Assembly (NCBI GenBank): GCA_964615985.1 | Contig: CAZTQX010000002.1 | Coordinates: forward strand, 7,805-52,349 | DNA length: 44,545 nucleotides | Reading direction: 5' to 3' | Source of the DNA: an uncultured Gammaproteobacteria bacterium | GTDB lineage: Bacteria; Pseudomonadota; Gammaproteobacteria; JAUZRS01 | Shown: positions 1,632 through 28,905 of the stretch, in pieces | How positions within the stretch are numbered: the stretch's first letter is position 1 | How the letters are laid out: every line of letters begins with the position of its first letter | Program-made: the position numbers and the translations under genes | The notes under the pieces: generated by a model | The model's database searches: none | What the model was told of the DNA's origin: nothing | Seen by the model: the letters and a program-made list of their open reading frames with translations, nothing else

Positions 1632-2029
1632 ACGAACCCACTTGGGTCGTGTTCGACGTTGTGATAGCCGTGCATCAAATGCTGTTGGAGGAACATGGTG
1701 GTCTGATAGGCATCCGTGATGCGGGACTGCTCGAATCAGCCCTACACCGGCCTCGCCAACAATTCAGTTACAGCAATAAACTATCGCTGTTTGATCTCGC
1801 CGCTGCTTACGGTTACGGGCTGGCCAAAAACCACCCTTTCGTTGATGGCAATAAGCGAGTCTCTTTAACCATTTCCGCCCTCTTTTTGGAACTCAATGGA
1901 GTGTCGTTCAATGCCCCCGAAGCGGAAGCCGTATTAATCATCGAGCAACTGGCCGCAGGTAAAATAAACGAAGAAACACTCTCTAGCTGGTTTAAAAATT
2001 CATCAGCAGCCCTTTCTACCACAACATAA
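1628..2029 (+). CDS. doc: Doc (death-on-curing) Fic-family toxin
   Basis: Fic/Doc signature HPFVDGNKRVS, size 133 aa, and translational coupling to the upstream small antitoxin. Confidence 0.88.
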   Translation: MNEPTWVVFDVVIAVHQMLLEEHGGLIGIRDAGLLESALHRPRQQFSYSNKLSLFDLAAAYGYGLAKNHPFVDGNKRVSLTISALFLELNGVSFNAPEAEAVLIIEQLAAGKINEETLSSWFKNSSAALSTTT

Positions 2030-3456: not shown

Positions 3457-6400
3457 TTACTGTAAGGTGAATTCATCCAAAACCTCACCACTGCGATTGT
3501 AACTGCCCACCCGTACCGAATTACCACTGATCACCACATGCACAAACCCCCAACGATCCAACGGAAATTCCGGCTGATCGGTCTTCCCACTGACCTCATT
3601 ACGTCTGGGATCATCAAACAGCACCGGCTCACCGGTCTGTGGATTGGTGGCGGTGAAATCATGGCCAACACCCGATTCCTTAACCTGCTTATCCCACGCT
3701 GCTGTATTCGGAATCGTGGGACTGGTTTCCCGTTGATGATGGTCTTTACCACCGTGACCACTCAAAACGTAAGTCACACCGTTGGTTTGATCAATGGAGC
3801 CATCGGCATGACGCACAATGCGCCCCGTTGCAGCATCCACTTTTAACGGCACACTGCGTTGAGAAGCGTGTTCATGACCAAACATCACCATCTTCACCCC
3901 GTACTGCTGAAACAGAGGCGAGAGCTTTTTGCGCATATCCACATTTTCTCGTTTATCCGCTGCGTAACCGTGTTTACCCGATGAAAAAATGGAGTGATGG
4001 AAAAAGGCGATCTTCCACGGTTTCGTGCTCGCTTGCAGATCAGCCTCCAACCAAGCCAGCATCGCGGGCAAACGCAATACAGCGGGGTCTCTGGGGACAA
4101 ACTTCTCTGTATCCAACATCACAAAATGGGCGTTACCCACATCAAAACTGTAATAATGTTCCGCATCTTCAGGTGGAATACCTGGCTCTATTGGAAACTC
4201 AAACGACTCAGTAAAGCCCAGCGGAATATTGCTGGCCACATTGCCGTACTCGTGATTTCCCAGAGTACCAAAGAAGGGCCGCCGCGAAAGAATGGAAACT
4301 TCTGCTGGATCAAGTGAGGCCACATTGGCCTTACCACTCATCAGATCAAAGAAATTAAAATCAAAGGTCTCAGGAGTACCGTCCTCCAGTTTGTGCAACG
4401 TCCCATCAATAAAACCGTTGCTGCTGTAGGCCAGATCCCCCACCCCAACGATAAAATCATGGGGATAATAAAAATTACCCGTGGAATCTTTGCGTGACAT
4501 CTGATCACGCACCCCGCGCGGTTGACTGTAACGTGTGCCACTGTCGCCAATCACCAAAAAGCTGGTTCCATTGGCACTGGTATCCGGCAGGGTCTTAAAG
4601 GTCATATCTTTCACCAACAACACATCGTCATGATAAAGGCTGTAGACGTACTGGGTGTCCGCTTGCAGCCCAGAGAGACCAGCTTTTTGATACACGTAAC
4701 TGCGACTGTTAGCAATGGATTGCGCAATCACGGTGGTAAATTGCGTGTCGCTCAATTTACGATAGGTAATGGTCGCTTTACCTGCATTCTCAGTACCCCA
4801 AATCACCTTGATGAGATCTGAGGTATAACCTTGAATATAAGGGTAACGACGCAAAATTGATTTACCGGCTGCGGTGGGCATCTCGGTGGCCAAACCACTG
4901 ATATCTGCCACCACACTGCCACCGCCACCAGCAGCTCCGCCTCCAGTTCCCGTCGTGCCGCCACTGCTGACCGTCAATCCCACGCTACTTTCAAAAGCGC
5001 CAATGTCCCAGCCACTGCCTTGCGGACGCGGTGTATTGGCAAAATCTTTCGGTACATCAGTGGCCAAATTGGCTCCTGCATCAAGTGCGGGACTGTTATC
5101 AGTCAAACGGTAATCACCACCGCTGACATTATTAAACAGTGGGTCAAGCGCCAAACTGTTTTGATCCACGCCGCTACGAGCGACCCACTCGCTGAACGGT
5201 ACAGCCGTATCACCTAATTTATCTTTCCAGATCAGCGTTGGCGAGGAACCATCGACACTCCAATAAATATTGTTATCCATGTGCAATTCAGCTGGCGAAA
5301 CCAAGGAGCGATAATCAATTTTCATTACCGAACGCGCACCGGTACCAATAATAATATTATTAAAAACATTGATGTTGATACCAAAGGTTTGATCGCTGAC
5401 CTCTGATTGATTGGAAATGTGAATTGCAGCATGACGATTACTGGCGGCGTTGTAACAGGTGTTGTTGTAGATCTTTACATCCCGTGATGATGCCGTGGCC
5501 AGACAAGACTCTTGCGTATTAACAATGACGTTATTACGAATCACCCCATCGTAGGTCTCATAAGGGCCATCGGTCAGTAGAATGGCATCGGTCTGCTGCC
5601 CCAACATAATGCCCTCGGCGTAGACGTTCTCCACCAGATTATTCTCGATCAAGGCGTTACGCGCGTTACCTTTGCAATAAATGCCAATGGAAGGGATGTT
5701 GTAGACATGATTATTAACCACCCAAAGATTGTCCACGCTCACACAATCGATTCCTTGCGCGTTCGCAGGACGCACAGCCAAGGTCTGAGAATTGGGAGGG
5801 TTTTGAGCCGCCAAAGCCGACCAACCCAAATTATCGTGAATTTTATTATTGGCAATCACCACATTATCAGCTTTGTTATTGACCTTGATAATGTCATTGG
5901 GCGCACTGTGCAGATCGTTATTAATCAACACCACATTGGGGTTTTCAATCTGCACTGCGTAGCGACTGCCGCCAATAATTTCCAGCCCTTCAACCCGCCA
6001 GTACATTGGCGTGCTGGTACCCGCATCGGCATTGGTATCGCCAATATAAAAGTAAAGGGTCTCAGAACGGCCACCATCCAAAATGACTTTCTCATTTTTA
6101 TAGGGACGCAAAGTAATCCAAGCATTAGCCAAACCCGCGCTGCTCGGTCCGATCAGGCTACCGGCATAACTGCCCGCTCGCATCTCAATCACATCTCCAG
6201 GAGAGACGCTGTTCACCGCCTTTTTCAAGGTCAAAAAGGGTGTGGCTAAACTGCCATCAGCAGCATCATTGCCATTGGTGGCAACATAATAAGTACGTCC
6301 TGTTCCCACCCCTGGAGTAGTTGGATCAGCAGGTTTCACTGGAGGTGCGGTTGTCCCACCTCCTGCTGAGCCGCCGTTATTAGATCCACCTGTTGAGCCG

Positions 6401-7182
6401 CCACCAGCATTTCCTCCGCCCGTACCGCCACTACTGACTGCTGCGGTGGTAAAACTCCAGCTAATATTGTTGATTTTATTACCCGCTAAATCGGCAACAT
6501 CCACCACAGCCACGGTGTAACGAGTATCGGCTTGCAACGCTCGCGGTGGTTGATAAACGGCGGTATTTCCCGTGCAGACCACTTGGCCACCGTGCAGACC
6601 AAACACCGTAAAGGTGTTCTCAATCGTGCTGCAATCCATCGTCTCACTAAAACTCACGCTGATAATCTGGTTAACAGCAATACCACTGGCACCGATGCCT
6701 GGGGTTCGTGACGTCACCACCGGCACCAGATTATCCACGCCATTGGCACCAGCACTGGCACCAGTATCAACACTGGGGGTCACGGTCAGAGTGACAGAAA
6801 CAATCGCATTGCCCGCCTGATCGGTCAGACCAGAGAGAGTCACGTTGTAGTTCTGACCCACGACAAAATCTTGGCCGGTCAAAAAGAAAATACGGTTATC
6901 GACAATACGAAATTCACCGTTATTGGCAATGGCTTCACCGCCGCCATCCACCACCAAAAACGAGGCTAAACTGAGGCTTGCTGCGCTGATCGGTTCATCG
7001 AATTGCACCTCAATCTTCTGCAAATCGGCTTTGATCAACAGCACCTTGGGTGCCGTGGTATCAGAATTTCCAGCAGCAGGAGGATTAGAAGAGCCACAAC
7101 CAACCACAAACAACAGCGGCAGCCAAGCCAACCAACGGCATCCAATCGACAGCACGGAACCACCTTTCCAATTTGTGTTCAT
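3457..7182 (-). CDS. Large multidomain lipoprotein: 2x SbsA-type Ig-like domains, right-handed parallel beta-helix, purple-acid-phosphatase-like metallophosphoesterase (1241 aa)
   Basis: AAGGAG lies 7 nt before ATG (complement of 7180-7182). Lipobox LFVVGC. Two Gly/Ser linkers. Beta-helix rungs (VVIANNKIHDN, VVNNHVYN, LIENNLVEN, IRNNVIVN, KIYNNTCYN), ending in DYRLTDNSPALDAGA..WDIGAFE. Metallophosphoesterase motifs GDSG, GDLAY, GNHEY, GHEH. Confidence 0.8.
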   Translation of the reverse strand: MNTNWKGGSVLSIGCRWLAWLPLLFVVGCGSSNPPAAGNSDTTAPKVLLIKADLQKIEVQFDEPISAASLSLASFLVVDGGGEAIANNGEFRIVDNRIFFLTGQDFVVGQNYNVTLSGLTDQAGNAIVSVTLTVTPSVDTGASAGANGVDNLVPVVTSRTPGIGASGIAVNQIISVSFSETMDCSTIENTFTVFGLHGGQVVCTGNTAVYQPPRALQADTRYTVAVVDVADLAGNKINNISWSFTTAAVSSGGTGGGNAGGGSTGGSNNGGSAGGGTTAPPVKPADPTTPGVGTGRTYYVATNGNDAADGSLATPFLTLKKAVNSVSPGDVIEMRAGSYAGSLIGPSSAGLANAWITLRPYKNEKVILDGGRSETLYFYIGDTNADAGTSTPMYWRVEGLEIIGGSRYAVQIENPNVVLINNDLHSAPNDIIKVNNKADNVVIANNKIHDNLGWSALAAQNPPNSQTLAVRPANAQGIDCVSVDNLWVVNNHVYNIPSIGIYCKGNARNALIENNLVENVYAEGIMLGQQTDAILLTDGPYETYDGVIRNNVIVNTQESCLATASSRDVKIYNNTCYNAASNRHAAIHISNQSEVSDQTFGININVFNNIIIGTGARSVMKIDYRSLVSPAELHMDNNIYWSVDGSSPTLIWKDKLGDTAVPFSEWVARSGVDQNSLALDPLFNNVSGGDYRLTDNSPALDAGANLATDVPKDFANTPRPQGSGWDIGAFESSVGLTVSSGGTTGTGGGAAGGGGSVVADISGLATEMPTAAGKSILRRYPYIQGYTSDLIKVIWGTENAGKATITYRKLSDTQFTTVIAQSIANSRSYVYQKAGLSGLQADTQYVYSLYHDDVLLVKDMTFKTLPDTSANGTSFLVIGDSGTRYSQPRGVRDQMSRKDSTGNFYYPHDFIVGVGDLAYSSNGFIDGTLHKLEDGTPETFDFNFFDLMSGKANVASLDPAEVSILSRRPFFGTLGNHEYGNVASNIPLGFTESFEFPIEPGIPPEDAEHYYSFDVGNAHFVMLDTEKFVPRDPAVLRLPAMLAWLEADLQASTKPWKIAFFHHSIFSSGKHGYAADKRENVDMRKKLSPLFQQYGVKMVMFGHEHASQRSVPLKVDAATGRIVRHADGSIDQTNGVTYVLSGHGGKDHHQRETSPTIPNTAAWDKQVKESGVGHDFTATNPQTGEPVLFDDPRRNEVSGKTDQPEFPLDRWGFVHVVISGNSVRVGSYNRSGEVLDEFTLQ

Positions 7183-7368
7183 CACCTAACTCCTTAACAT
7201 GCCACGCTGATCTCAACCAAAACGTAAAATCCACGACACATAACTTAACAAAGACTTAAAGATACCAGAATACCCATCTACTTTGATCTTTTTATTACCC
7301 AGTTCACACTATCAACTTTAACAATCAGCTCAAAAGTCTAAAACTTGATCCTTCCCACAAAGATTAAA

Positions 7369-8394
7369 TCACTCAACATGAAAACTCCAAGTCACCACCC
7401 CATCCATCACATTACCCGCTAAATCTTGCACTGCGCTCAAACGCAGGCTATAAAAACCAGCCTCATCCCATGAATCATCTGGAGTAAAATAAACCTGATG
7501 AGCATCACAGCTCAGCTCCCCCAAAACCGCCAGGTCATCAAATTCCAACCGCCCCGTTCCACAGTCAATCGCCTCATCAAAGCTGACTACCACTATCGCA
7601 TCATGATTCACCTCCAAGCTGCCATCTTGAGGCAACAGGGACAGAACGACCGGTACCGTTACATCCAACTGAGTGGTTTCCAATAAACCCACCGTGGAAA
7701 AATCCCAACGGAAAAAAGGCAGCAGATTACCGGCCAAATCCATCGCCCCCAGCAAAATCGCCTCGTAACTGGACTCTGCTTGCAGAGGTTCTGCTGGTTG
7801 ATAAACAGCGGTGCGCTCTTGACAGGAACTCAATTCAGTCACAACACCAGAAAGAGTCAAAGCCGTTTGCAAGCTGGTGCAATCCATCGCTTCGCTGAAA
7901 TTCAGAATCAACGACTGACTCAAACCAACGGCACGCTCATCAGCAGTCGGTCGATGTGAAATCAAGCGGGGAACACTCTGATCAAACGCAACTGCGTTGT
8001 TAACCACCAGCACCTTCGGCTCCACACTGACCACTGTTTTTGGCAGCGGGTTAGCCGCTCTGTCGGTCAAACCGGAGAGAGTGACGTGGTATTTTTTGCC
8101 ACTCTGAAAGGCCTGTTCTGCACGAAACTCAATAAACTCGTCAAACAGATAAAATTGCCCCTCTCTGGTCATCTCACGCTGCTGATCATCGTGTATCGTA
8201 AAGGTGTGATAACTCAGACTAGAGGCCTCAATCACCTCATCAAACTGCACCAAAATGGCATCGCTGCTGGCCGTTGCACGCACCAGCGAGGGCTGCGTCT
8301 GATCTTGACTGAGATCGTACTCACTACACCCTGAAATAGCTAAAACAGCTGCCCAGCAGAGGGACCCCCAAAGACTCACACCTTTCATTTCCAT
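7369..8394 (-). CDS. Lipoprotein made of three SbsA-type Ig-like domains, paralogous to the N-terminus of the 1241-aa protein
   Basis: Signal peptide with lipobox LAISGC. YHVTLSGLTDRAANPL aligns with YNVTLSGLTDQAGNAI of the neighbour. SEAMDCTSLQ aligns with SETMDCSTIE. TAVYQPAEPLQAESSY aligns with TAVYQPPRALQADTRY. Confidence 0.7.
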   Translation of the reverse strand: MEMKGVSLWGSLCWAAVLAISGCSEYDLSQDQTQPSLVRATASSDAILVQFDEVIEASSLSYHTFTIHDDQQREMTREGQFYLFDEFIEFRAEQAFQSGKKYHVTLSGLTDRAANPLPKTVVSVEPKVLVVNNAVAFDQSVPRLISHRPTADERAVGLSQSLILNFSEAMDCTSLQTALTLSGVVTELSSCQERTAVYQPAEPLQAESSYEAILLGAMDLAGNLLPFFRWDFSTVGLLETTQLDVTVPVVLSLLPQDGSLEVNHDAIVVVSFDEAIDCGTGRLEFDDLAVLGELSCDAHQVYFTPDDSWDEAGFYSLRLSAVQDLAGNVMDGVVTWSFHVE

Positions 8395-8848: not shown

Positions 8849-9325
8849 ATGGACGAGCCTGAGTTTAAAAAAGCCTATCACGCCCTCAGTTATCGCCCCT
8901 GCCCGTTTGAAAAAACTCAGCTAGCGCGTCACAGTCGCTGTCGTTATGCCCAACAGTTTCGGATTGCGGATCGCAGCGGTCTGAGTTGCCAATCGGCGAC
9001 CGCCCAGCCGCGTTGTCAGCAGTTGTTGAAACTGCTCCGCCACAACGCTCGCTTCAGCCTCAAACTGACCGAAATCGAAGGGCCACTGCCTCATTCAAAA
9101 GAGATTAAGGTACAAACTGGCGGTTTACGAGGATTACGAAAAGCAGTACAAGGGGAGAGCAGCGAAGGGATTGTCGAAGATATTTTTGCTCTTGTGGAAG
9201 AGGCCTTAGAGCAATTTCAAGAGTTGGACAACTTACCTTACGAGCAATTTTTAGCCGAAATCAATGCGCTGGAAACGAGCTGGCGGCGGCGTAAAAAACC
9301 CAAGCCGAAACCCGAATCCGATTAA
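8849..9325 (+). CDS. Hypothetical protein (158 aa) with four N-terminal Cys and a Lys/Pro-rich tail
   Basis: Co-directional and tightly spaced with 8597..8842. Cys in RPCPF, SRCRY, LSCQS and PRCQQ. The tail is WRRRKKPKPKPESD. No family recognised. Confidence 0.55.
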   Translation: MDEPEFKKAYHALSYRPCPFEKTQLARHSRCRYAQQFRIADRSGLSCQSATAQPRCQQLLKLLRHNARFSLKLTEIEGPLPHSKEIKVQTGGLRGLRKAVQGESSEGIVEDIFALVEEALEQFQELDNLPYEQFLAEINALETSWRRRKKPKPKPESD

Positions 9326-9342: not shown

Positions 9343-12300
9343 TTAATCACTCTGTCGTTGCAAAAATTGACTCTCAATCTCCGCAGCGGGTCGAGGACGA
9401 CTGAAGAAATAACCCTGAATCTGATCACACCCGCACTCCTCTAAAAACTGCTCTTGCTGCTGTGACTCAACCCCTTCAGCGGTCACTTGCAGACCCAAAC
9501 CGTGCGCCAAGGCAACAATGCCACGAAGAATTTCAGCATCCGTCCGATCGGTGACAATCCCCTTAACGAAAGTACGGTCTATCTTTAAACAATCAATTGG
9601 AAAGCGTTTCAGGTAACTCAAAGAGGAGTAACCGGTGCCAAAATCGTCAATGGTCAGCTGTACACCCATTTTTTTCAGAGCCATCAGGGTATTAATGACA
9701 TTTTCTGGCTCTTTCATCATCGCACTTTCTGTGATTTCCAACTCAAGAACGTGAGGCTGCAGACGATTTTGTTGTAAATGTTTATTAACAATCTCCAACA
9801 GAGCCACTTCATCCAACTGTTTAGCAGAAAGATTAACCGCCATGCGAATGCTTCGATAGCCCTCATCCAACCACATCCGAGCCTGCTGGCAGGCTTTAGA
9901 CAAAACCCATTCACCTAGCGCGACAATCATACCGCTCTCTTCCAAATAGGGAATAAACTCCGCTGGCGAGATCAGACCTCGTGTTGGGTGCTGCCAACGC
10001 AACAGAGCCTCCATGCTCTCCATGCGGCCACTTTTCAGACAGCGTTGTGGTTGGTAGTAGAGTAAAAACTCCTGCCGCTCCAAGGCACCACGAAGGTCAT
10101 GTTCCAGTTTCAAACGCCGACTAACCTCAGCTCCCATCCCAGGCTCATAGAATTGAAAATGCCCGCCTTTCTCCTTAGCTCGAAACATCGCCGTATCGGC
10201 ATGTTTGAGCATATCACTGCTGCTTTCACCATCTTCTGGATAAACCGCAACACCGACACTGGTGCCGATGTAAACCGGCTGCTCCATAAACGTAAACGGC
10301 TCTGAAATCACTTCACAGATTTTTTCAGCCACCTTGGCAACCGCCTCCAATTCACGAATATTATCCAAAATAATGGTGAACTCATCGCCACCCAATCGCG
10401 CCACCACATCGCCGCTGCGCACACAGCGTAACAATCGCTCTGCAACCGCCTGCAGCAACAGATCACCCACATCGTGCCCCAGAGAATCATTGACACTTTT
10501 AAACCGATCCAAATCTAAGAACAGCACCGCAAAACGGCGTTTCTCTTGTTCATCGCTCAACAAGGTTTGAATATGCTCCATAAACAGAGCGCGGTTGGGC
10601 AAGCCGGTCAAAGTGTCGTGATAAGCCAATTGATGCACATGTTTTTCTGCTCGACTGGCGCTTAACAATCGCGCCACACGCTGTCTTAAGACAGCGAAGT
10701 GGAGTGGTTTGGGGATAAAATCCGTCGCTCCAGCAGCAAAGGCATTATCAATGGAGTGCTCATCGTCCAGAGCGGTAATAATCACAATCGGCAGACTCTC
10801 ACCAGAGGGCAAACGCCGAATCCGCCGACAGGCTTCAAACCCACCCATCACCGGCATCAGCGCATCCATCAACACCAAATCAGGCATCTGACGTTCACAA
10901 AGAGCCAGAGCCTGCTCACCGTTACCGGCCTCTTTAACCTGATAACCGTCTCCCGCCAACACCGTCCGTAACGCCAAACGAATACCGCGATCATCGTCCA
11001 CCACCACCACAGAGAACGGATCACCGACCTCTTGCACACTCACAAGCTCCACCTCAACCCCAGAAAGCGACTCCAACTCCAATTTGACCGCGTGATACTC
11101 AGTTTCCAAACTGCGCTGCAATACCTCCGCATTACCCAACTGCTCTGAACGTCCCAACTCCTCTAAAGCCGCTGCAAACTTCGCCATCGGTTGCGCACCC
11201 AAATTACGGGCGCTGCCCTTGACACTGTGGGCAACATTGGCCATTTCAGTCATATTTTGATCACTGATCGCATTGCGTAAGGCCTGCAGATAGATGGGCA
11301 TGTCTTCCATAAACACCGTCAACAACATGAAAAAGGAGCTGCCCACGTTGTCACGTAACTCATCTAAAAAAGCGTGATCCAGAGAAACCGACTGCCGCTC
11401 TGATGATTGCTGAAACAAGGGATCTTGTTTAGATACGGAATCATTATTATTGACAAACCAGCGCTGCAAACTCTGTTGTAGACGTTGCAAATTAAGCGGT
11501 TTACTGAGGTAATCATCCATCCCAACCGCATAACAACGCTCAACCTCGGCTTCACCCACATTGGCGGTCATGGCAATAATGGGCAGATGCTGATCCTGTT
11601 CCTCGGCTCGAATGCGCAGGGTCGCCTCGTAACCGTCCAACTCCGGCATATGGCAATCCATCAACAACGCATCAAACGTGCGCTCGGCTAACATCTCCAA
11701 CGCCTGCTGACCATTATTAGCCAACTCCACCGTACAGCCCAAACGCTGCAACATGCCCAAAGCCACCTGCTGATTGGCGCGGTTGTCCTCCACCACCAAC
11801 ACCGATTTAGCAAAATGAACCGTGCTCCGCTTGGCAGCGGTTTTTACTGGCTTCAGTAAGCGTTGCGGTGGCCGTAGCACATTGGCAATCGCATCGTGCA
11901 ACGCCGACTCTTCCACCGGAGTCTCAATGTAACCGGCCGCATCCACCAGTTGAATGGTCTCGTGCCCCACCTGCCAACGACGAATCATCATAATCACAGC
12001 GGTGTCGCTTAACTTTGCATCGGCCTTAATCGCCTGACTCAAACTGGCTCCATCCATGTGCGGCATCTCCTGATCCACCATCACGACCCGATACGGTTTA
12101 TCTATCGCAGCGGCCACCTTGAGCGCTTTCAACGCATCGTGACCACAAGAGACTCCATGCTGCTGAATCCCCCAACGCTCCAAGGTCTGCTGCAAAAATT
12201 GACGATTGACCTCACTGTCATCCACCACCAGCACTTTCTCACCCGCCAGAGTACTGGAATAGCCTTCCTCCTCTCTCTCAACCGCATCCATCGGCAAGGT

Positions 12301-13770
12301 AAACCAAAAACGGCTGCCTCTGCCCAAGCGACTCCCCACTCCAATTTCGCCCCCCAACAACTCCACCAACTGACGACAGATGGCCAACCCTAAACCGGTA
12401 CCGCCATAACGTCGAGTAGTGGAACCGTCCGCTTGTGAAAACGGTTCAAAAATTCTCTCTTGCGCCTCCTCTAAGATACCGATGCCGCTGTCTTTCACCT
12501 CAAAACGCAGCAAATAACGACGCTCTTGATGGGAAACCACCGAGACCAACACCGACACCTCTCCACGCTCAGTAAACTTGATGCCATTGCCCAACAGATT
12601 CATTAAAATCTGTCGTAAACGTCCCGCATCACCAAACAATCGAGCGGGGACATTGGATTCAATCAGATAACCGATGTCCAAACCCTTGCGCTGCGCTTGT
12701 CCAGCCAACAGACCCACAACGTCCTTTTGCACATCGCGCAGATTGAAATCTTCGTTGTTGCTTTTCAGACGACCGGCCTCAATGCGAGAAAAATCGAGAA
12801 TGTCTTCAATCAACGACAGCAAGGCACGACCAGAACCTAAAGCAACCTCTATGTACTCTTGTTGTTTTGGGGTCAAGCCCATAGAACCCAATAACTCCAA
12901 CATCCCCAGCACACCGTTCAATGGGGTACGCAGATCGTGGCTCACATTAGTCGCAAACTCACCTTTCAGACGCGCCGATTTCAAGGCTATATCACGCGCC
13001 TTTTGCAACTCCGATTCACGCGCTTCCAATACATTCATCATGGTATTAAACGCTTCTTCCATGCGCATAATATCCTGCGGCCCATCCACAGCAGAACGTA
13101 CCTTTTTTTCCCCGCGCTGCGCGCGTTTCATCGCTTCAGCCAACTGCTGCAACGGCTTGGTCACTCGCGTGGTAATGGCCAACAAAACCAACAACAGCAA
13201 CGACGCCAGCAACAGAGAGATGTAGAGGTTAACTCTAAAAACTTGATTCAGAACCCGATCAAGAGACGCTTTGCTCATCACCAAGCGGGTATAACCGATC
13301 AAATCAGGAGCTGCTGTCTGCACACTAAAAGGTGAGCTGTCAGTAACTTCATCACTGAACACCGGAGCAATAAAATACCAAACCTGATCCGTCTCCCCAC
13401 CCAGTTGCGCCTTCAGTGGCCACACAGCAGCACCACCTTGTTGTAACGGGGCTGTTTTTGCACCTGCCGAAAAGAGCACATCATGATTGACCTGAAAAAT
13501 AGTAACCGAAATTACATCTGGAAAAGAGAGTGTCAGACGTGCGGCTTCTTTGGCGTTCTCCGCACTTTCATAAAGCAACGCCAAAGCACTTTGCTGAGCA
13601 AAAGATTCGGTCACTTTCAGGCCCTGCTCAAGCGCTTGCTGACGCAGCCCATCACTGGAGTAAGTCGAAATCGTAAACGAAGAGATCAACGCCAAACAAA
13701 AAATACCCAGCGTAAAAGCCAGAATAAGCTGTTGCTTAAAACCCCAACGTGAAATATGCGTAAAATTCAT
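9343..13770 (-). CDS. Hybrid sensor kinase / diguanylate cyclase / phosphodiesterase: TM-periplasmic loop-TM-HAMP-HisKA-HATPase-REC-REC-Hpt-REC-GGDEF-EAL (1475 aa)
   Basis: Residue numbers are by my own count. H-box SHDLRTPLN (His ~278); G-box GGTGLGLAI. REC Asp in MVDQEMP (~566), LMDCHMP (~705) and LMDALMP (~969). Hpt HSVKGSARNLG (~848). RSGD I-site followed 5 residues later by GGDEF (~1127). EAL motifs EALLRW, ELEITES and DDFGTGYSS. Confidence 0.92.
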   Translation of the reverse strand: MNFTHISRWGFKQQLILAFTLGIFCLALISSFTISTYSSDGLRQQALEQGLKVTESFAQQSALALLYESAENAKEAARLTLSFPDVISVTIFQVNHDVLFSAGAKTAPLQQGGAAVWPLKAQLGGETDQVWYFIAPVFSDEVTDSSPFSVQTAAPDLIGYTRLVMSKASLDRVLNQVFRVNLYISLLLASLLLLVLLAITTRVTKPLQQLAEAMKRAQRGEKKVRSAVDGPQDIMRMEEAFNTMMNVLEARESELQKARDIALKSARLKGEFATNVSHDLRTPLNGVLGMLELLGSMGLTPKQQEYIEVALGSGRALLSLIEDILDFSRIEAGRLKSNNEDFNLRDVQKDVVGLLAGQAQRKGLDIGYLIESNVPARLFGDAGRLRQILMNLLGNGIKFTERGEVSVLVSVVSHQERRYLLRFEVKDSGIGILEEAQERIFEPFSQADGSTTRRYGGTGLGLAICRQLVELLGGEIGVGSRLGRGSRFWFTLPMDAVEREEEGYSSTLAGEKVLVVDDSEVNRQFLQQTLERWGIQQHGVSCGHDALKALKVAAAIDKPYRVVMVDQEMPHMDGASLSQAIKADAKLSDTAVIMMIRRWQVGHETIQLVDAAGYIETPVEESALHDAIANVLRPPQRLLKPVKTAAKRSTVHFAKSVLVVEDNRANQQVALGMLQRLGCTVELANNGQQALEMLAERTFDALLMDCHMPELDGYEATLRIRAEEQDQHLPIIAMTANVGEAEVERCYAVGMDDYLSKPLNLQRLQQSLQRWFVNNNDSVSKQDPLFQQSSERQSVSLDHAFLDELRDNVGSSFFMLLTVFMEDMPIYLQALRNAISDQNMTEMANVAHSVKGSARNLGAQPMAKFAAALEELGRSEQLGNAEVLQRSLETEYHAVKLELESLSGVEVELVSVQEVGDPFSVVVVDDDRGIRLALRTVLAGDGYQVKEAGNGEQALALCERQMPDLVLMDALMPVMGGFEACRRIRRLPSGESLPIVIITALDDEHSIDNAFAAGATDFIPKPLHFAVLRQRVARLLSASRAEKHVHQLAYHDTLTGLPNRALFMEHIQTLLSDEQEKRRFAVLFLDLDRFKSVNDSLGHDVGDLLLQAVAERLLRCVRSGDVVARLGGDEFTIILDNIRELEAVAKVAEKICEVISEPFTFMEQPVYIGTSVGVAVYPEDGESSSDMLKHADTAMFRAKEKGGHFQFYEPGMGAEVSRRLKLEHDLRGALERQEFLLYYQPQRCLKSGRMESMEALLRWQHPTRGLISPAEFIPYLEESGMIVALGEWVLSKACQQARMWLDEGYRSIRMAVNLSAKQLDEVALLEIVNKHLQQNRLQPHVLELEITESAMMKEPENVINTLMALKKMGVQLTIDDFGTGYSSLSYLKRFPIDCLKIDRTFVKGIVTDRTDAEILRGIVALAHGLGLQVTAEGVESQQQEQFLEECGCDQIQGYFFSRPRPAAEIESQFLQRQSD

Positions 13771-13790
13771 GCTTATCGCTCAAATTTTGG

Positions 13791-14729
13791 CTAATAACGG
13801 CGCGGAAAGAGCAGGTCAAAGGCTCGAATTTGACGCGGTAAAAGGCGCAAACCAAGGTGATCCGCCGTACGCCGATTAAGGGCAAACTTAGCCTCTAACA
13901 GCGCACGAACCCCCTCATCAGTAGCGTCTTGCTGTAATTGACGTTGCGCCATTCTGGCCAAGCTTTGACCCAACGCTTCGTTATCTGCATAAAGAGAAAA
14001 GAGTGCGCCTCTTTTAGCATGCACCGAAGTACTGGAAAAAATCACAAATTCCCGTTCCCATGCTTGGCTCAACAGATTAGAAAAATTCCGACTTTGATCC
14101 ACCGTCACCCGATCCATCGGCAGCCACAATGCGTCCTTTTTAGCGTCCAACTGTTTCAACCAACGACGATAATGGCCCGCCGCTTCCTTCATACTCTCTG
14201 CTGGGATGGCATTCAAACGCAGGCCTCGACTGAGCGCCTCCTGCTGCGCCTTTTTAATCAAACAGGCGTTATTTTCCATATTATAGATCACCGTGATCGT
14301 CTCCACTTCGGGAACCAGAGAAACCAAGGTTTCAAACAGCAGCTTAGGGTCAGGCATCAAACTGATGCCCGTGCCAGCGTTGCGGCTCACCGACAGATCG
14401 GTCCCGCCAAACACCACCTTTACCAGCCCATCCAACTGCGACAGCGCTCTCGAACCTGCTCCTCCCAAGGCAATAACCACCTCAATCTCTTGCTGATCAA
14501 GCCACGCATCCAACGCATCCAATTGATAATCTGGAGATAGAGCATAACTGCGCACCGGCTCACCGATAACCGCCGTAATTCCCTTTAACATCTCGTCAAA
14601 AATCGCTTTAAAATGCCCATCCACCTGCGGATAAACCACCGCCACAGGCTGCTGTGCCAACACACCTTGTAAGGGCATGCAACACAACAACAGCAACCAT
14701 AGCCAGGCCATTCGCTTAGGTAAAAACAT
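13791..14729 (-). CDS. Periplasmic substrate-binding protein of the uncharacterised ABC_sub_bind (COG2984-like) type, with no transporter partner
   Basis: Signal peptide MFLPKRMAWLWLLLLCCMPLQGVLA. The pattern VVIALGGAGS..VVFGGTD..ITVIYN..DALWLPMD..VIFSS..GALFSL resembles PF04392-type binding proteins. The start is uncertain: the track gives TTG 14765; ATG 14729 gives the best signal peptide; ATG 14711 is also possible. Confidence 0.7.
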   Translation of the reverse strand: MFLPKRMAWLWLLLLCCMPLQGVLAQQPVAVVYPQVDGHFKAIFDEMLKGITAVIGEPVRSYALSPDYQLDALDAWLDQQEIEVVIALGGAGSRALSQLDGLVKVVFGGTDLSVSRNAGTGISLMPDPKLLFETLVSLVPEVETITVIYNMENNACLIKKAQQEALSRGLRLNAIPAESMKEAAGHYRRWLKQLDAKKDALWLPMDRVTVDQSRNFSNLLSQAWEREFVIFSSTSVHAKRGALFSLYADNEALGQSLARMAQRQLQQDATDEGVRALLEAKFALNRRTADHLGLRLLPRQIRAFDLLFPRRY

Positions 14730-14771
14730 GTGTAAAATAATCTGCATCCATAAATCGAATTTCAACCCGCC

Positions 14772-16856
14772 CTAAAAAGTATAACTCAGCTCGGCAAACA
14801 CATTCCGCCCTGCCAGAGGCAGGTCATTTGGAATCTCTGCTGCCGACGGTTCACGACGCTCCGCATCAAACAGATTACGCACCCCCAGCGCAGACTCCCA
14901 GCCTGAAGATGCAGAACGACGTCGCACCGTCAGATCCACCGAACTGTAATCGGCTACCTCTGCTCGCAGATCTCCCGCCGCTCTGGCTCTTGACATCAGC
15001 AGATTCAAACGTGAATTCACGCTCCAGGCGGGTTGAAATTGCCAGTCTGCCTGCAGATAGAGCTGATGATTGGGTGCATTGGCGGCAGATTGATTGCTGC
15101 TGTTATCCAAAGAGGATTGATAGGCTGTATTCAGCATCAAATGCAGATCAGAGGTCACCCGCCAATCCACCTCAAACTCCAATCCACCGCCACTCTGACT
15201 GCCACCATTTTGTGCTCGCTTTGACAGATCCGAGCCACTGGGATCAACGGGTTCAAAACGGATAATATCCTGCCATAAATAGGAAAACAGACTGGCGCTC
15301 AAACGCAGTCTCTCTTGAGGGTAGTATTCAAAAGCCAACTCAGTGGTTTGTATCGTCTCTGGTTTCAAATCCGCATTGCCCAACGCCACCGGATTATTAC
15401 GATTTTGGGTCTCTGCAAACGAAGGAGCACGGAATGCCTGACCGTACAGCAGCTTAAGCGTCATATTCTGCTGCAGTGACCAAATCAAGGCTAAACGCGG
15501 ATTAAGCGTCTGGCCAAAATCACTGTAATCGTCCAACCGTACCCCAGAGGTCAACTCCCAATCATTAGCCAATTTCCAGATATCCTGTAAAAAAAGATGG
15601 GCATTTTGTCGCCCCCCTTCAGGTAAAAAGACCGCCGCACTGTCCGATACATCCACCAAGGCGCCCAAGGGTGCAGGGAGAGGAGAGCCCATGGGAAATT
15701 CAAAATTTTTGCTCTCATTAACTCGGTAAATTTCACTGTCACTGTAACCCACGCCTAAACGAAGACGATGAGCAAAAAAACCAGCATACGAGGCCGAAAC
15801 GTTCCAGCGAGCATGCCGCTCAAACACTTCAGGATTACCAATAACGCCCGCTTGAAAACCCAGACCACCTGCAGGAAAAAGATTTAAATTCTCCTCAACC
15901 CGCTGGGAGGTGTCGTAAAAACTCAATTGAGTACTGATGTCCCAATCGTCAGCCAAATTAGGATTATGATAATTCAGATCCAAATTCCAACGTTCGCTGC
16001 CCAAGCGACCACTGGGATCCAGTGCCGAGGCAAGACCGACCCCCGAACCATTGTTGCTGCGACGCTGCCAACCCAAACGTGCGATAAAATCGCCCCGCCC
16101 CAGCTCCAAGCGCAGATCCAGATTATCCCGCTGTCGATTCACTGATCCTGGAGCCAAGGAGAATTGACTGCCAAACAGTTGATCTAAACCACTCTGCGCA
16201 TCCTGTTCGATAATATTCTTAGCCCCATCCGTGCGATGACTCTCTAAGGTAAAAGCAAACTGCCAACCCGCCAACTCACTGCCGTGCAACAACCAAAGAT
16301 CCTGAGCAGCAAAACTGCCGTAACGCACCCCAACCTCGGTACCGTTAATATCCGCCGCATTTTTGGTAATGACATTGATCACCCCAGCAAAGGCATCAGC
16401 ACCGTAAATCGCAGCCCCAGGGCCACGAATCACCTCAACTCTGGCGATGGCTTTGACTGGCATCCCTCCCCAGACTTGATGACGATCACCCACAAACAGG
16501 CTGTTGATCGGCACCCCATTGATCAACATCAACACCTCGGCATTGAAAGTAGAGGCGATACCCCGAAACAAATAGAGAGGGTTGTAACCATTGCTACGAG
16601 AAACATGCAGCCCAGGAATACTCTCCAAAATCTCATCCAGATCGGTCACTCCCATCGCCCGAATCTGCTTGGCAGTAATCACATTGGCCACCGCTGGAGC
16701 TTTGGAAATCGGCTGCTGCTCCCCCGTGGCAATGGTAATCATCTCCTCATCACCGTAAAGCAACAACAGATCTTGCTCCTCACGACTGTACTCTACAGCC
16801 CCTGCAGCCCCACTTAACAGCCCAAAACAGAACAGCAATGGCAGATAACCCAACAT
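14772..16856 (-). CDS. TonB-dependent outer-membrane receptor (694 aa)
   Basis: GGAGG lies 7 nt before ATG (complement of 16854-16856). Signal peptide, TonB-box-like EEMITIATG, plug motifs (ITAKQIRAMGVTDLDEILESIPGLHV, IRGPGAAIYGADAFAGVINVITK), and a C-terminal beta-barrel ending in aromatic ..ELSYTF. Confidence 0.9.
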   Translation of the reverse strand: MLGYLPLLFCFGLLSGAAGAVEYSREEQDLLLLYGDEEMITIATGEQQPISKAPAVANVITAKQIRAMGVTDLDEILESIPGLHVSRSNGYNPLYLFRGIASTFNAEVLMLINGVPINSLFVGDRHQVWGGMPVKAIARVEVIRGPGAAIYGADAFAGVINVITKNAADINGTEVGVRYGSFAAQDLWLLHGSELAGWQFAFTLESHRTDGAKNIIEQDAQSGLDQLFGSQFSLAPGSVNRQRDNLDLRLELGRGDFIARLGWQRRSNNGSGVGLASALDPSGRLGSERWNLDLNYHNPNLADDWDISTQLSFYDTSQRVEENLNLFPAGGLGFQAGVIGNPEVFERHARWNVSASYAGFFAHRLRLGVGYSDSEIYRVNESKNFEFPMGSPLPAPLGALVDVSDSAAVFLPEGGRQNAHLFLQDIWKLANDWELTSGVRLDDYSDFGQTLNPRLALIWSLQQNMTLKLLYGQAFRAPSFAETQNRNNPVALGNADLKPETIQTTELAFEYYPQERLRLSASLFSYLWQDIIRFEPVDPSGSDLSKRAQNGGSQSGGGLEFEVDWRVTSDLHLMLNTAYQSSLDNSSNQSAANAPNHQLYLQADWQFQPAWSVNSRLNLLMSRARAAGDLRAEVADYSSVDLTVRRRSASSGWESALGVRNLFDAERREPSAAEIPNDLPLAGRNVFAELSYTF

Positions 16857-17146
16857 CAATTCCCCTCCCCCTTATTAAATACACAGCGATTCGTTATTAT
16901 TGTTATTCGAAAGCCGCCAACAAAAATTTCAAAACTTATTCTAACCTTAAATTCTTTACCGCGCACTCGGACAACGTCATTGATTCGAGATAAAAAAACC
17001 AATCCTAACACCTGTATGTAACTCATAGGCTTCTAAGCATCTGACAGTTCAGGCATAATGACCCCCTTTTTTAGGGCTGAGCCAATTCGTAAGCAAGGCT
17101 TTTGCCGCCACCATAAAATCACTCGTCACTTTGGCGTGAGGACACT

Positions 17147-25512: not shown

Positions 25513-27255
25513 ATGTCTGAAACTGAGGAAAACACACTGCCAGAAGTCAGTGATCTGCTGTTGGCTTATCTTGAGCAGCTCAAAATTGACTGTGTATTTG
25601 GCGTTCCTGGTGGGGGCATCGAACCCCTCTTTAATGCCCTCGCTCGCAGTCAACGTTCCGGTGGCATCAGAGCCGTCATCGCCCGCCATGAAACCGGCGC
25701 GGCGTTTATGGCCGACGGTTATTATCGCCAAACAGGCAAGCTGGGCGTCTGCTGCGCCACCACGGGACCTGGAGCCACCAACTTATTGACAGGTGTCGCT
25801 TCTGCTTATGAAAACCAGATCCCAGTGTTGGTTTTGACTGGTCAAACCTCACTGAGTCATTTTGGCCAAGGTGCATTACAAGAGTCCTCCAGCAGTGGCA
25901 TCGACACAGTGGGCATGTTTCAACACTGCACCCGTTATAACAGCTTGATCTCGCACCTTGATCAGTTTGAACGCAAATTAATCAGCGCCATTATGACGGC
26001 CTTTCAATCTCCACCGGGTCCTGTTCATCTCACCTTACCCCTAGACATACTGCGTGCTCCCTCTCCCGTACAGCAACCGCAATATTTCCTACCCCAACTC
26101 ACCAAAACCAATTTTTCTGTGGATTTGGAGCAAGTCTCAATCTTAGGAAAAAAACTGGCCGCATCAAAAGGCTTGGCCTTTGTGATTGGTGATGGAGCCG
26201 AAGCCGCCATCGAACCTCTTTGCCAACTAGCCGAAAGATTAGGGGCTTGGCTGATTGCCACCCCACACGCCAAAGGTCTGATCAATCACAATCACCCTCT
26301 GTTCTGTGGTGTGCTGGGATTTGCCGGTCATGAAAGCGCTCTCGCCACCCTAAGACAAGATCGTATTGATACAATTATGGCCATCGGCACCAGTTTAGGT
26401 GAGTGGGCCACCAACGGCTGGGACAGCGCTTTATTAAACCATCGGTTGCTGCATGTGGAAGAGATCGCAACTAATCTGACCCGTTCTCCGATGGCACAAA
26501 TGCAACTCTGTGGCAATTTACAAAAAATATGCACACAACTGCTTGCACAATCAACATCACATCAACAAGACAAAACTGCAGTTAGCCCACCTTCACCGTA
26601 CCAACAACAGATAAAGCAAGACATACTGAAGTTATCCTCTAATGCCCATGCTCTAATAAAACCTCAATGGCTGATGCAAAATCTGGGGAAATTATTACCC
26701 TCTGGCACTCTATTTCTTGCGGACTCCGGCAACAGCATTGCCTGGGCGATCCACTATTTTCACCCACCCGAGCGGCGGTTAACGGCTCGAGACGGTGACA
26801 AACCTCTGTTTCGGGGCGCGCTCGAATTCGCCTCTATGGGTTGGGCCATTGGTGCTGCTGTCGGTACCGCTGTGGGCACACAAAACCAAGCAGTTGTCTG
26901 CGTCACCGGTGATGGCAGCTGGCTTATGTCGGGCCAAGAAATCACCGTCGCCATCCAAGAATCACTCGCCATTATTTTTATTATTCTCAATGACTCTGCA
27001 TTGGGGATGGTCAAACACGGTCAACAGTTAGCCAAAGCCGAGACCATTGGATACGCTCTACCCAACATTAATTATGCCGCGATGGCGCAGGCGATGGGCG
27101 TACAAAGTTTCACCATCCGGCAACCTCAAGAATTATTGCAGCTGGATTTTAAAGCCCTCTGTAAATACCCAGGCCCGACTCTACTGGACATTCACATTGA
27201 TCCCAATGAAGTCCCCCCCATCGGGGCCAGAGTCAAAGTCTTGGGCAGTGCTTGA
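25513..27255 (+). CDS. Thiamine-diphosphate-dependent enzyme of the acetolactate synthase / 2-hydroxyacyl-CoA lyase / oxalyl-CoA decarboxylase superfamily (580 aa)
   Basis: N-terminal PYR domain (VFGVPGGGIEPLFNAL, ARHETGAAFMADGY, TTGPGATNLLTGVASAY) and C-terminal ThDP-binding motif GDGSWLM..ILNDSALGMV. Confidence 0.88.
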   Translation: MSETEENTLPEVSDLLLAYLEQLKIDCVFGVPGGGIEPLFNALARSQRSGGIRAVIARHETGAAFMADGYYRQTGKLGVCCATTGPGATNLLTGVASAYENQIPVLVLTGQTSLSHFGQGALQESSSSGIDTVGMFQHCTRYNSLISHLDQFERKLISAIMTAFQSPPGPVHLTLPLDILRAPSPVQQPQYFLPQLTKTNFSVDLEQVSILGKKLAASKGLAFVIGDGAEAAIEPLCQLAERLGAWLIATPHAKGLINHNHPLFCGVLGFAGHESALATLRQDRIDTIMAIGTSLGEWATNGWDSALLNHRLLHVEEIATNLTRSPMAQMQLCGNLQKICTQLLAQSTSHQQDKTAVSPPSPYQQQIKQDILKLSSNAHALIKPQWLMQNLGKLLPSGTLFLADSGNSIAWAIHYFHPPERRLTARDGDKPLFRGALEFASMGWAIGAAVGTAVGTQNQAVVCVTGDGSWLMSGQEITVAIQESLAIIFIILNDSALGMVKHGQQLAKAETIGYALPNINYAAMAQAMGVQSFTIRQPQELLQLDFKALCKYPGPTLLDIHIDPNEVPPIGARVKVLGSA

Positions 27256-28079
27256 TGTCCAAACAGAAAAAACAAGAAACCATTCGCAGCCATATTTGGC
27301 AAGAAGAGGCCGAAGCAGACAACCCCTTCACGGCCAAAACCTGCTACTGCTCCGGTTACGATGTCTACGGCGACCTGCTTGGCAAAGCCCGCTGGTCTGA
27401 ATACCTTTTCCTCTTGTTTCAACGCCAACCGCCACAACCATGGCAAGCTGCTCTGCTGGAAGATGTCGCCCTTATTTTGGCCAATCCAGGACCACGAGAT
27501 CTCAGTGTTCGTGCCGCCATGAACGGTGGCGTTGGCCAATCCACCAGCGCCTCTTGTTTAATGGCCGCGCTGGCCGTGGGTGCCGGTCAAAATAGTGGCG
27601 CTCACGAACTGGCTCTGGCACTGCAAGGCTGGCAGCAGTGCCAGCTCGACCTAACAGAGTGGCAAGCGTGGTTTAAGGCTCTCAACAAGGATGAACGTGC
27701 TGACATCTGGCCTGATATGGAACACTTTCCAGGTTTTGATCCACAGGGCATCTCCTGCTCCACTCCAGTACGACAAGCCTTACAACACCTCAGCAAACAA
27801 CACCCTGATGGCGCACTCAATTGGCTAATGCACGAACGTGTCTCATTTGAAGCAATCGCCAAAAAACCACTCTCCATGCTCGGTGTCACCGCAGCGGCCT
27901 TTTACGATTTGGGTTTTACACCACAGCAAGGCGAGATGCTCTATCTGCTGCTGCGTCTGCCTGGAGCCGCCGCACATGCCCTAGAGCAGATGCCTCGGGG
28001 CTGGGTTCACTACCCCTTTTTTGCTGATGGTCTACAGGTTGAGAACGACCCAAGTAAACAAGATAAACCCCATGAATAA
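27255..28079 (+). CDS. Citrate synthase-fold (citryl-CoA-lyase-like) protein 1, catalytic residues apparently substituted
   Basis: ATG 27255 overlaps the upstream TGA by 1 nt. The pattern YDVYGDLLGKARWSEYLFLLF..PGPRDLSVRAAMNGGVGQSTSASCLMAALAVGAG..SGAHE and LGFTPQQGEMLYLLLRLPGAAAHALEQ follows the citrate synthase large-domain layout. Confidence 0.6.
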   Translation: MSKQKKQETIRSHIWQEEAEADNPFTAKTCYCSGYDVYGDLLGKARWSEYLFLLFQRQPPQPWQAALLEDVALILANPGPRDLSVRAAMNGGVGQSTSASCLMAALAVGAGQNSGAHELALALQGWQQCQLDLTEWQAWFKALNKDERADIWPDMEHFPGFDPQGISCSTPVRQALQHLSKQHPDGALNWLMHERVSFEAIAKKPLSMLGVTAAAFYDLGFTPQQGEMLYLLLRLPGAAAHALEQMPRGWVHYPFFADGLQVENDPSKQDKPHE

Positions 28080-28905
28080 AACAGACACTCAACTCGAGGC
28101 TTTACTGGATGCCGAACGGCTCTGGGTAACAAAGATGGGGGGGTGGTTTGGCAAAGAACAGCGGGTTGTTTATCGTGGTAAAGACCTCTTTCACGACCTG
28201 AAAGACTTCTCATGGATGGAGCTGCTGCTGTTTGGTGTCACCGGACGAGAGTTTTCCAAACAACAGGTAGCACTCTTTAATGCCATCTGGGTCATCTGCA
28301 TCAGCTACCCTGATCCGCGACTCTGGAATAACCGAGTTGCAGCTCTAGCAGGCACCGCGCGCAGCACAGCCTCTCTGGCCATTGCTGCCGCCACAGCAGT
28401 TTCCGAGGCCACCGTCTACGGTTCGAAAGCTGGGTTACGCTCGATGAATTTTCTCCAGCGCAGTATGAAACAAAAAAAACTCGGTGTCAGTGTTGAAGAC
28501 ATTGTGGCCAACGAGATGAAAAAATATAAAACCATCTCTGGTTACAGTCGCCCAATCCCCATTCCAGATGAACGCATCACTCCCCTGCTACGCAAAGCCG
28601 AAGAGCTGAACTTAGCAAAAGGAGACTATCTATCTCTGTCTTTCCAGGTAGAAGCGGTTTTATTAACAAAACATCCACGGGGGTTTATGAATATTGCGGC
28701 CATGATCGCAGGGCTTGCCGCTGACCAAGGGTTCTCCTGCCAAGAATTGCATCAATTCATGGGGCTGGGTTTTTCAGCCGGAATCTATCCCTGTTTTATC
28801 GAAGCCAGCGAAAAGCCAGAAGGATATTTTTTTCCGCTGCATTGTGAACGTATCGAATATCGCGGTGAAAAACCACGCCAATGGAACGACAGAAAAACTC
28901 AGTAA
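28072..28905 (+). CDS. Citrate synthase-fold (citryl-CoA-lyase-like) protein 2, paralogue of the preceding gene
   Basis: ATG 28072 overlaps the upstream stop by 8 nt (ATGAATAA). VVYRGKDLFHDLKDFSWMELLLFGVTGREFS..YPDPRLWNNRVAALAGTARSTASLAIAAATAVSEA matches the citryl-CoA-lyase-like layout. The track TTG 28021 is unlikely. Confidence 0.6.
   Translation: MNKTDTQLEALLDAERLWVTKMGGWFGKEQRVVYRGKDLFHDLKDFSWMELLLFGVTGREFSKQQVALFNAIWVICISYPDPRLWNNRVAALAGTARSTASLAIAAATAVSEATVYGSKAGLRSMNFLQRSMKQKKLGVSVEDIVANEMKKYKTISGYSRPIPIPDERITPLLRKAEELNLAKGDYLSLSFQVEAVLLTKHPRGFMNIAAMIAGLAADQGFSCQELHQFMGLGFSAGIYPCFIEASEKPEGYFFPLHCERIEYRGEKPRQWNDRKTQ

Follow-up and report, generated by a model that had tools for sequence, protein, structure and literature searches.

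A TonB-dependent receptor, an orphan binding protein and a GacS-type sensor form a candidate envelope-spanning cassette with c-di-GMP output

The 44,545-nucleotide stretch analysed here, which we call the window, comes from an uncultured Gammaproteobacteria bacterium (contig CAZTQX010000002.1 of assembly GCA_964615985.1, positions 7,805 to 52,349) and carries on its minus strand three co-directional genes, encoding a TonB-dependent receptor (TBDR, 14772..16859, 695 aa), a periplasmic substrate-binding protein (SBP, 13791..14765, 324 aa) and a membrane histidine kinase fused to cyclic di-GMP (c-di-GMP) domains (9343..13770, 1475 aa). We propose, with a probability of roughly 60%, that this cassette is an envelope-spanning, binding-protein-dependent sensor with c-di-GMP output. 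The wiring from a TBDR through an SBP to a kinase is already known, having been published once, and c-di-GMP enzymes controlled by an SBP are known as well; the breadth of the family, its modular and c-di-GMP-dominant outputs, its GacS-type detector and an associated enzyme trio appear not to have been described within the literature searched.

ORF calls confirm the three minus-strand genes that an initial annotation, made from the window sequence, had recognised, and all the Pfam families that it had predicted for receptor, binding protein and kinase were recovered. The shortest gene gaps that it had given also hold, in that the SBP stop (TAG 13791-13793) lies 20 nt from the kinase ATG at 13770 and the TBDR stop 6 nt from the earliest possible SBP start (TTG 14765); the distance to the most plausible SBP start (ATG 14711) is about 60 nt. 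Since the same three-gene arrangement recurs in dozens of unrelated genomes, it goes beyond chance. A degenerate-pattern scan covering one genome for each GTDB species found SBP relatives in at least 561 genomes, and the best 80 loci were kept. Open reading frames (ORFs) called in 84 loci were labelled by phmmer searches with pieces of the window proteins, and the six of these 84 without an SBP call were left out, giving 78 loci. The kept loci come from the Gammaproteobacteria (Methylomonas, Alteromonadaceae, Chromatiaceae, Acidiferrobacterales), the Betaproteobacteria (Gallionella, Rhodoferax, Azonexus/Dechloromonas, Aquabacterium, Sulfuricella, Thiobacillus) and the Desulfuromonadales, and a consensus-sequence search places at least 1997 clusters at 90% identity in the SBP family (E <= 1e-25).

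In every locus with a gene downstream of the SBP (74/74), that gene lies on the same strand and encodes a membrane sensor, and the first ~200 residues of all 74 sensors share homology with the N-terminus of the window kinase (residues 1-200). What follows this detector varies, being a kinase-REC-Hpt-REC-GGDEF-EAL assembly as in the window in 26 loci, a kinase only (~535 aa) in 23, GGDEF-EAL directly, with no kinase (~812 aa), in nine, a kinase-REC (684-784 aa) in seven, and other architectures in a few. The binding protein had been taken for a dedicated partner of the kinase, and a neighbourhood survey had been suggested as a check on co-conservation; the sensor with the homologous detector comes next whatever its output, and 59 of the 78 loci have a TBDR no more than three genes from the SBP. 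A constant input module joined to swappable outputs marks a dedicated co-sensor and not a transport protein, and from these sequences SBP and sensor are very probably partners, presumably by docking.

The co-variation of the parts was assessed by a mirror-tree comparison of pairwise distance matrices from the 35 loci holding all parts. The SBP correlates best with the periplasmic domain of the sensor (r = 0.88, partial 0.65), then with the TBDR (r = 0.75, partial 0.25), and least with the kinase core, which belongs to the same polypeptide as the periplasmic domain (r = 0.63, partial 0.11). The stronger co-variation with the periplasmic domain would fit physical contact, though it is not proof of it, because shared ancestry inflates such correlations.

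The SBP belongs, as the initial annotation had it, to the ABC_sub_bind type (PF04392, 41 bits against a cutoff of 25.9, E 1.8e-10), and no match to the PotD or SBP_bac families was found in Pfam or NCBIfam. From its likely start at ATG 14711 it has 306 aa, with a cleavable signal peptide (MAWLWLLLLCC...VLA, cut ahead of QQ). An AlphaFold (AF2) model built on a 21-sequence alignment (A1) has a two-lobe type I fold, with a predicted local distance difference test score (pLDDT) of 88.9, and the nearest solved structures found by Foldseek are 3LFT (L-Trp bound), 3LKV and CD0873, with E-values of ~1e-14 to 1e-15 for the first two. The motifs RGALFSLYPDN and AVNxRTAxHLG are invariant in the subfamily. 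A tblastn search of the SBP against plasmids gave no match.

Such a protein might simply serve an ABC importer encoded elsewhere, with receptor and kinase merely co-located or co-regulated. PF04392 is indeed named for ABC substrate-binding proteins, the characterised TrpX-like members are transport components (PMC10443332), and a literature search on PF04392/COG2984 returned nothing on signalling. We nevertheless hold this explanation to be highly improbable. The SBP adjoins a sensor with a co-varying periplasmic domain in all 74 loci, and no ABC permease or ATPase gene was found by Pfam among all window ORFs of at least 120 aa, in line with what had been seen before. In the 78 loci a regular-expression search gave only two ABC-ATPase-like ORFs, one about 9 kb away and the other on the opposite strand, neither adjacent. 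Moreover, the window SBP is, by its sequence, a very divergent PF04392 member, apparently far from the transport-type members, and the TrpX model gives it only 45 bits against a cutoff of 390.

On the kinase side, residues 1-205 (13156..13770) comprise two transmembrane helices, visible as hydrophobic segments at about residues 15-35 and 180-203, which enclose the periplasmic loop of ~145 aa that had been reported earlier. This loop had been described as having no recognisable fold. It is in fact homologous to the PDC/PAS detector of GacS: a profile of 28 sensor N-termini with the window sequence first (A3) matches 5O7J_A with an E-value of 2.8e-8, its positions 40-168 aligning to chain residues 22-143, over ~125 residues. 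The 5O7J structure shows the periplasmic detector of GacS from Pseudomonas aeruginosa, described by its authors as a distinct PDC/PAS fold on which GacS function depends (PMC5595915). Since a single-sequence AlphaFold model of the window detector was not usable (pLDDT 35), the fold assignment is one of sequence homology.

Behind the detector, Pfam gives the order HAMP-HisKA-HATPase_c-REC-REC-Hpt-REC-GGDEF-EAL, with all catalytic motifs intact. The HAMP, HisKA and HATPase_c core (residues 199-495, 12286..13176) has the H-box SHDLRTP with His279 and intact N, G1 and G2 boxes. It is followed by REC1 and REC2 (~residues 514-771, 11458..12231), with acceptor aspartates in VVMVDQEMP and LLMDCHMP, by an Hpt domain with His848 in HSVKG (residues 816-895, 11086..11325), and by REC3 (LVLMDALMP, residues 921-1032, 10675..11010), which is placed like a fused response regulator. 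The GGDEF domain (10162..10626, Pfam 1.6e-50) has its motif intact at residue 1127 and an RxxD I-site (RSGD) five residues upstream, and the EAL domain (9394..10098, Pfam 9.8e-78) retains EALLR at 1254, DDFGTG at 1375, KID at 1395 and EGVE at 1432.

The top NCBIfam match of the kinase is BarA (2e-160), but with 535.7 bits against a cutoff of 890, and over residues 248-876 only; as this is below the equivalog cutoff, the window kinase is not BarA or GacS itself. The order HAMP-HisKA-HATPase-REC-Hpt is shared with GacS/BarA, as are the detector homology and the BarA-like core, whereas the additional REC and the C-terminal REC-GGDEF-EAL are not. The cassette sensor also differs in being always paired with an SBP, whereas no SBP partner is known for GacS/BarA, and our literature search found no report of one for GacS-type kinases; a 2020 review gives the GacS ligand as still unknown (PMC7695008). 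No GacA/UvrY-type regulator or Rsm/Csr small RNA was found within the window by Pfam and Rfam.

A c-di-GMP output, predicted by the initial annotation for the window kinase, is recurrent across the family. GGDEF/EAL domains are carried by 36 of the 69 complete sensors, and 13 of the other 33 are accompanied in their locus by a separate GGDEF/EAL protein, in most cases REC-GGDEF-EAL. This separate regulator is usually a REC-(PAS)-GGDEF-EAL protein of ~850 aa at the far end of the cluster. Because kinase-only relatives encode it separately within the cluster, the window sensor looks like a fusion of a ~535-aa kinase with such a regulator, which lends support to an internal His-Asp-His-Asp relay that would end on REC3, ahead of GGDEF-EAL.

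Among the related loci, five (L029, L033, L061, L062 and L064, labelled Janthinobacterium, Burkholderiaceae or Pseudomonadota) have two SBP copies in tandem before a single sensor. In loci of the Gallionella type (L016:12933-15964, L018, L025, L051, L052 and L072), where the sensor is detector-GGDEF-EAL, a ~254-aa LytTR-type (BtsR-like) regulator is encoded a few genes downstream and may be a second output branch; directly ahead of it, L016 and L025 have a 756-aa protein without family match. In a gammaproteobacterial kinase-only group (L001:8866-9759, L009, L090:1185-2048) a protein of ~290 aa without Pfam family, absent from the window, is encoded directly upstream of the SBP gene.

The receptor, whose likely start is ATG 16856, has the plug (3e-23) and the 22-strand barrel (4e-41) of TBDRs in Pfam, preceded by a signal peptide and a TonB-box-like EEMITIATG. 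The plug starts at residue 51 and Pfam gives no STN match, which bears out the earlier statement that an N-terminal extension of the FecA type is missing; nor did Pfam scans of the window ORFs find sigma or anti-sigma genes. Thus the receptor resembles FecA/FecR/FecI in that an outer-membrane TBDR would be the first element of a signalling chain, and differs from it in having no STN domain and in a proposed relay through a soluble binding protein to a kinase. In 47 loci the cassette-linked TBDRs score 378-1287 bits (median 636) against the window receptor, compared with 67 bits for an unrelated TBDR present in one locus, and the linked receptors therefore form one orthologous subfamily. Among loci with full 10-kb flanks, 33 of 37 have a linked TBDR. 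In Betaproteobacteria and many Gammaproteobacteria it lies upstream on the same strand; the receptor gene of Desulfuromonadales is also on that strand but downstream, and that of Aquabacterium and of another gammaproteobacterial group is convergent. The linkage outlasts rearrangement, in three gene orders. The receptor likely admits a small molecule. In some loci (L060:12000-20386 and L087) a single SBP-sensor pair has several TBDR paralogs nearby, which belong to the cassette subfamily and score 513-595 bits against the window receptor.

The wiring of the cassette, held at first not to have been characterised, has in fact been published as PahS/PahP/PahK/PahR for Cycloclasticus sp. P1 (Wang et al. 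2023, iScience 26:107912; PMC10570129). There, pahS (TBDR, 687 aa), pahP (SBP, 318 aa) and pahK (histidine kinase, 771 aa) are adjacent in that order (Q91_0827, Q91_0826, Q91_0825), and transposon mutants in any of the three do not use polycyclic aromatic hydrocarbons (PAHs). Binding between PahS and PahP and between PahP and PahK, modulated by PAHs, was reported from co-immunoprecipitation, surface plasmon resonance (SPR), two-hybrid and Förster resonance energy transfer (FRET) experiments, while PahK did not bind PAHs, was described as having "no periplasmic sensor domain", and has as cognate regulator the GacA-like PahR (PMC10570129). The window has the same layout, with a TBDR without signalling extension, an SBP without transporter and a membrane histidine kinase, adjacent and co-directional. 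The gene order agrees, as do the sizes of the first two proteins (687 and 318 aa there, 695 and 306-324 aa here), and the 771 aa of PahK match the kinase-REC variants. Both systems have a TBDR without an extracytoplasmic function (ECF) sigma partner, a two-lobe SBP with a three-strand hinge and no transporter, and a kinase with 'no annotated sensor domain'; a GacA-like PahR fits the GacS-type detector and the BarA-like core found here. The two differ in output, which is an unlinked GacA-type DNA-binding regulator there and a REC-GGDEF-EAL fused to the kinase here, and in that the window has no PAH-degradation context. On this comparison of gene order, sizes and description alone, we consider it probable, with good confidence, that the Pah system belongs to the same family. 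Cycloclasticus was not among the listed SBP matches (24 with the window SBP, 55 with a 29-sequence alignment), nor among the 120 shown of 1997 consensus matches or the best 80 of the at least 561 loci. Two 318-aa candidates for PahP were rejected as other variants of the SBP family.

Functional parallels are also found in other protein families. In Vibrio cholerae the orphan SBP NspS is said to be encoded beside the inner-membrane GGDEF-EAL enzyme MbaA, which it reportedly controls via a periplasmic domain. The Gallionella-type relatives, with their detector-GGDEF-EAL sensor of ~812 aa, share exactly this layout, but NspS is a PotD-type polyamine binder and not a PF04392 protein, and neither a TBDR nor a kinase with phosphorelay takes part, so that the parallel is one of function only. 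In LuxP-LuxQ, TorT-TorS and ChvE-VirA, a hybrid kinase is modulated by a dedicated SBP, which docks on its periplasmic PAS/PDC-type domain. In these the SBP is of another family, there is no TBDR, and phosphate is transferred to separate Hpt and regulator proteins instead of reaching c-di-GMP domains; in NCBIfam the window kinase resembles LuxQ and TorS within the kinase core only.

A third parallel is YfiB-YfiR-YfiN (TpbB), in which an outer-membrane protein reportedly controls an inner-membrane cyclase through a periplasmic intermediary. As proposed for the cassette, a relay leads from the outer membrane through a periplasmic protein to a c-di-GMP enzyme of the inner membrane, but the proteins belong to unrelated families, a repressor is sequestered instead of a ligand being delivered, and there is no phosphorelay. 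On this precedent the SBP of the cassette could be a ligand-independent switch, shuttling between receptor and kinase according to the state of the envelope or TonB energisation. The Pah study fits such behaviour, in that PahP was bound to PahS at rest and released upon stimulation (PMC10570129). We consider this decidedly unlikely, as the SBP retains the complete two-lobe type I fold and is nearest to ligand-bound amino-acid binders, the receptor retains the TonB box and plug typical of active transporters, and the enzymes linked to the cassette suggest small-molecule chemistry.

These enzymes were found because in related loci the cassette is often flanked by a ~600-aa thiamine pyrophosphate (TPP) enzyme and two paralogous ~270-aa proteins without Pfam family. 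The window has all three on its plus strand, at 25513-28905, outside the coordinates covered by the initial annotation: the TPP enzyme (25513..27255, 580 aa, Pfam TPP_enzyme_N/M/C), a citryl-CoA-lyase-like protein 'a' (CCLa, 27252..28079, 275 aa), without Pfam match and placed by profile homology, and its paralog 'b' (CCLb, 28021..28905), with likely start ATG 28069 (MNKTDTQ...). A tRNA gene (28949-29022, minus strand) directly follows the end of the trio, and a second lies at 32501-32572 (minus strand). The orthologs of the TPP enzyme score 500-640 bits and occur in 28 of the 37 full-flank loci, and those of CCLa and CCLb, which adjoin the cassette elsewhere, reach 357 and 285 bits. The trio adjoins the cassette in at least 31 of the 78 loci and in at least 23 of the 37 with full flanks, in three gene orders, and in Beta- and Gammaproteobacteria as well as Desulfuromonadales. 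In the betaproteobacterial locus L016 the six genes are tightly packed in one direction, their gaps being -4 to 27 nt, and in Desulfuromonadales and another gammaproteobacterial group the order of the trio is altered with the linkage kept (the trio lies, for example, at L016:3614-7021, L012:3389-7663 and L010:9750-13232).

The nearest solved structures to the TPP enzyme are BbmA and CsmA (2e-85), compared with 2e-55 for acetolactate synthases; a literature search on the names and PDB codes of BbmA and CsmA returned nothing on their chemistry. The profiles of the two citryl-CoA-lyase-like families match citryl-CoA lyase 6HXP with E-values of 1.3e-19 ('a') and 3.6e-16 ('b'), and in these alignments DHG is replaced by NPG, GYGH by GYGR, and the aspartate of NVD is lost, the last two in 'b'. 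The substituted positions are those that we take to be the catalytic His/His/Asp of citrate synthase, and because of these substitutions the two proteins are, on the alignments, probably not lyases. None of the three proteins has a signal peptide. The gene aceE beside the receptor was considered as the TPP enzyme of the cluster and rejected, as it is of a different family and the true ortholog is at 25513-27255. The trio probably makes, modifies or consumes the sensed molecule. Our best guess for this molecule, loosely indicated by the PF04392 precedents, the Pah claim and the carboligase type of the TPP enzyme, is an aromatic or hydrophobic small compound; the ligands seen so far in PF04392 structures are all aromatic amino acids (PMC10443332).

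The trio also allows for a self-signal, compatible with the core of our proposal, in which the enzymes synthesise a molecule that is released, re-imported by the TBDR and read by the SBP and the sensor, as a TonB-gated autoinducer or metallophore-like loop and not a detection of environmental nutrients. The tight co-directional cluster of six genes in many Beta- and Gammaproteobacteria speaks for it, together with the linkage kept after rearrangement in Desulfuromonadales and other Gammaproteobacteria, the closeness of the TPP enzyme to BbmA/CsmA and ScyA-related carboligases rather than to acetolactate synthases, the lack of signal peptides in the enzymes, and the classical role of TBDRs in importing self-made siderophores. 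However, the cluster has no conserved exporter or further biosynthetic genes, the citryl-CoA-lyase-like proteins have no canonical catalytic residues, enzymes clustered with a sensor are equally compatible with catabolism of an imported compound, and the complete trio was not detected in 14 of the 37 full-flank loci. We give the self-signal a small though appreciable chance. In its strictest form, the six genes would be a self-contained circuit, in which a metabolite made by the enzymes enters only via its own TonB-gated channel and is read by the SBP, whose docking on the GacS-family detector sets c-di-GMP, and this form we regard as a speculation with a slight chance of being right.

In the mechanism that we favour, of an envelope-spanning sensor that depends on its binding protein, the dedicated TBDR would bring a small molecule across the outer membrane into the periplasm, where the transporter-less PF04392-type SBP would capture it. 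The loaded SBP would dock on the GacS-type detector and, by analogy with LuxP-LuxQ and PahP-PahK, shift the balance between autokinase and phosphatase. Phosphate would then flow within one polypeptide from His279 to the aspartate of REC1 or REC2, on to His848 of the Hpt domain and to the aspartate of REC3, whose phosphorylation would set the balance of GGDEF cyclase and EAL phosphodiesterase, in either direction. The conserved gene set also includes the cytoplasmic TPP enzyme and the two citryl-CoA-lyase-like proteins, which are catalytically degenerate.

Several points weigh against this proposal. The passage of the ligand, the docking and the effect on c-di-GMP are steps that we infer. About a quarter of the loci have no TBDR near the SBP-sensor pair, many of these being cut contigs, and the gene calls in the related loci come from a crude custom ORF picker; independent gene calls and precomputed Pfam labels agree with the survey architectures. 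The mirror-tree correlations are raised by shared phylogeny and also by the non-independence of pairs. The trio of the window lies 8.6 kb from the receptor on the opposite strand, and its co-regulation with the cassette is thus not evident there; between the two are aceE-aceF-lpd, a cytochrome b561, two small ORFs (one glutaredoxin/glutathione S-transferase-like) and an enoyl-CoA hydratase. Consensus scans of the window for promoters and terminators gave matches at chance level, so we leave the operon boundaries undefined. As to the Pah system, likened here by layout and description, its evidence comes from one laboratory (papers of 2021 and 2023), and its ligand assignment, with nanomolar SPR values for very hydrophobic PAHs, need not transfer to the window.

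Other features of the window have no evident part in the cassette or a conjectural one. Rfam detected two tRNAs only, and no riboswitch was found ahead of the receptor gene. Directly downstream of the sensor gene, past a small ORF on the opposite strand, two large secreted-type proteins are encoded at 3457-8394 (minus strand), one of 341 aa with three Big_5 immunoglobulin-like domains, and the other of 1242 aa, in which Big_5 is combined with a right-handed beta-helix and a metallophosphatase resembling purple acid phosphatases; both look like adhesins or exoenzymes and could be surface proteins under c-di-GMP control. An ORF of 158 aa at 8849-9325 (plus strand) is convergent to the kinase gene; it matches no family in Pfam or NCBIfam, and the related loci have no counterpart of it. 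At 1628-2029 (plus strand), beside xseA, a 133-aa Fic/DOC-family protein is encoded, with no relation to the cassette.

If the proposal holds, signalling from a TBDR to the cytoplasm would be possible without the FecA/anti-sigma route, with a soluble SBP relaying to a two-component kinase, and active uptake at the outer membrane would be tied directly to the switch between biofilm and motility. With at least 561 species, this route appears to be common and not a curiosity of hydrocarbon degraders. The family also offers a tractable handle on the input of the GacS-type detector, as the ligand of GacS itself has been looked for over decades, the SBP is soluble and lends itself to purification and screening, and the linked enzymes give a hint of the signal's chemistry. 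Should the six genes truly be one circuit, they would represent a new class of autoinducer sensing that depends on TonB, a ligand route would be defined for the first time for a GacS-type detector, and canonical GacS/BarA detectors may likewise act via partner proteins.

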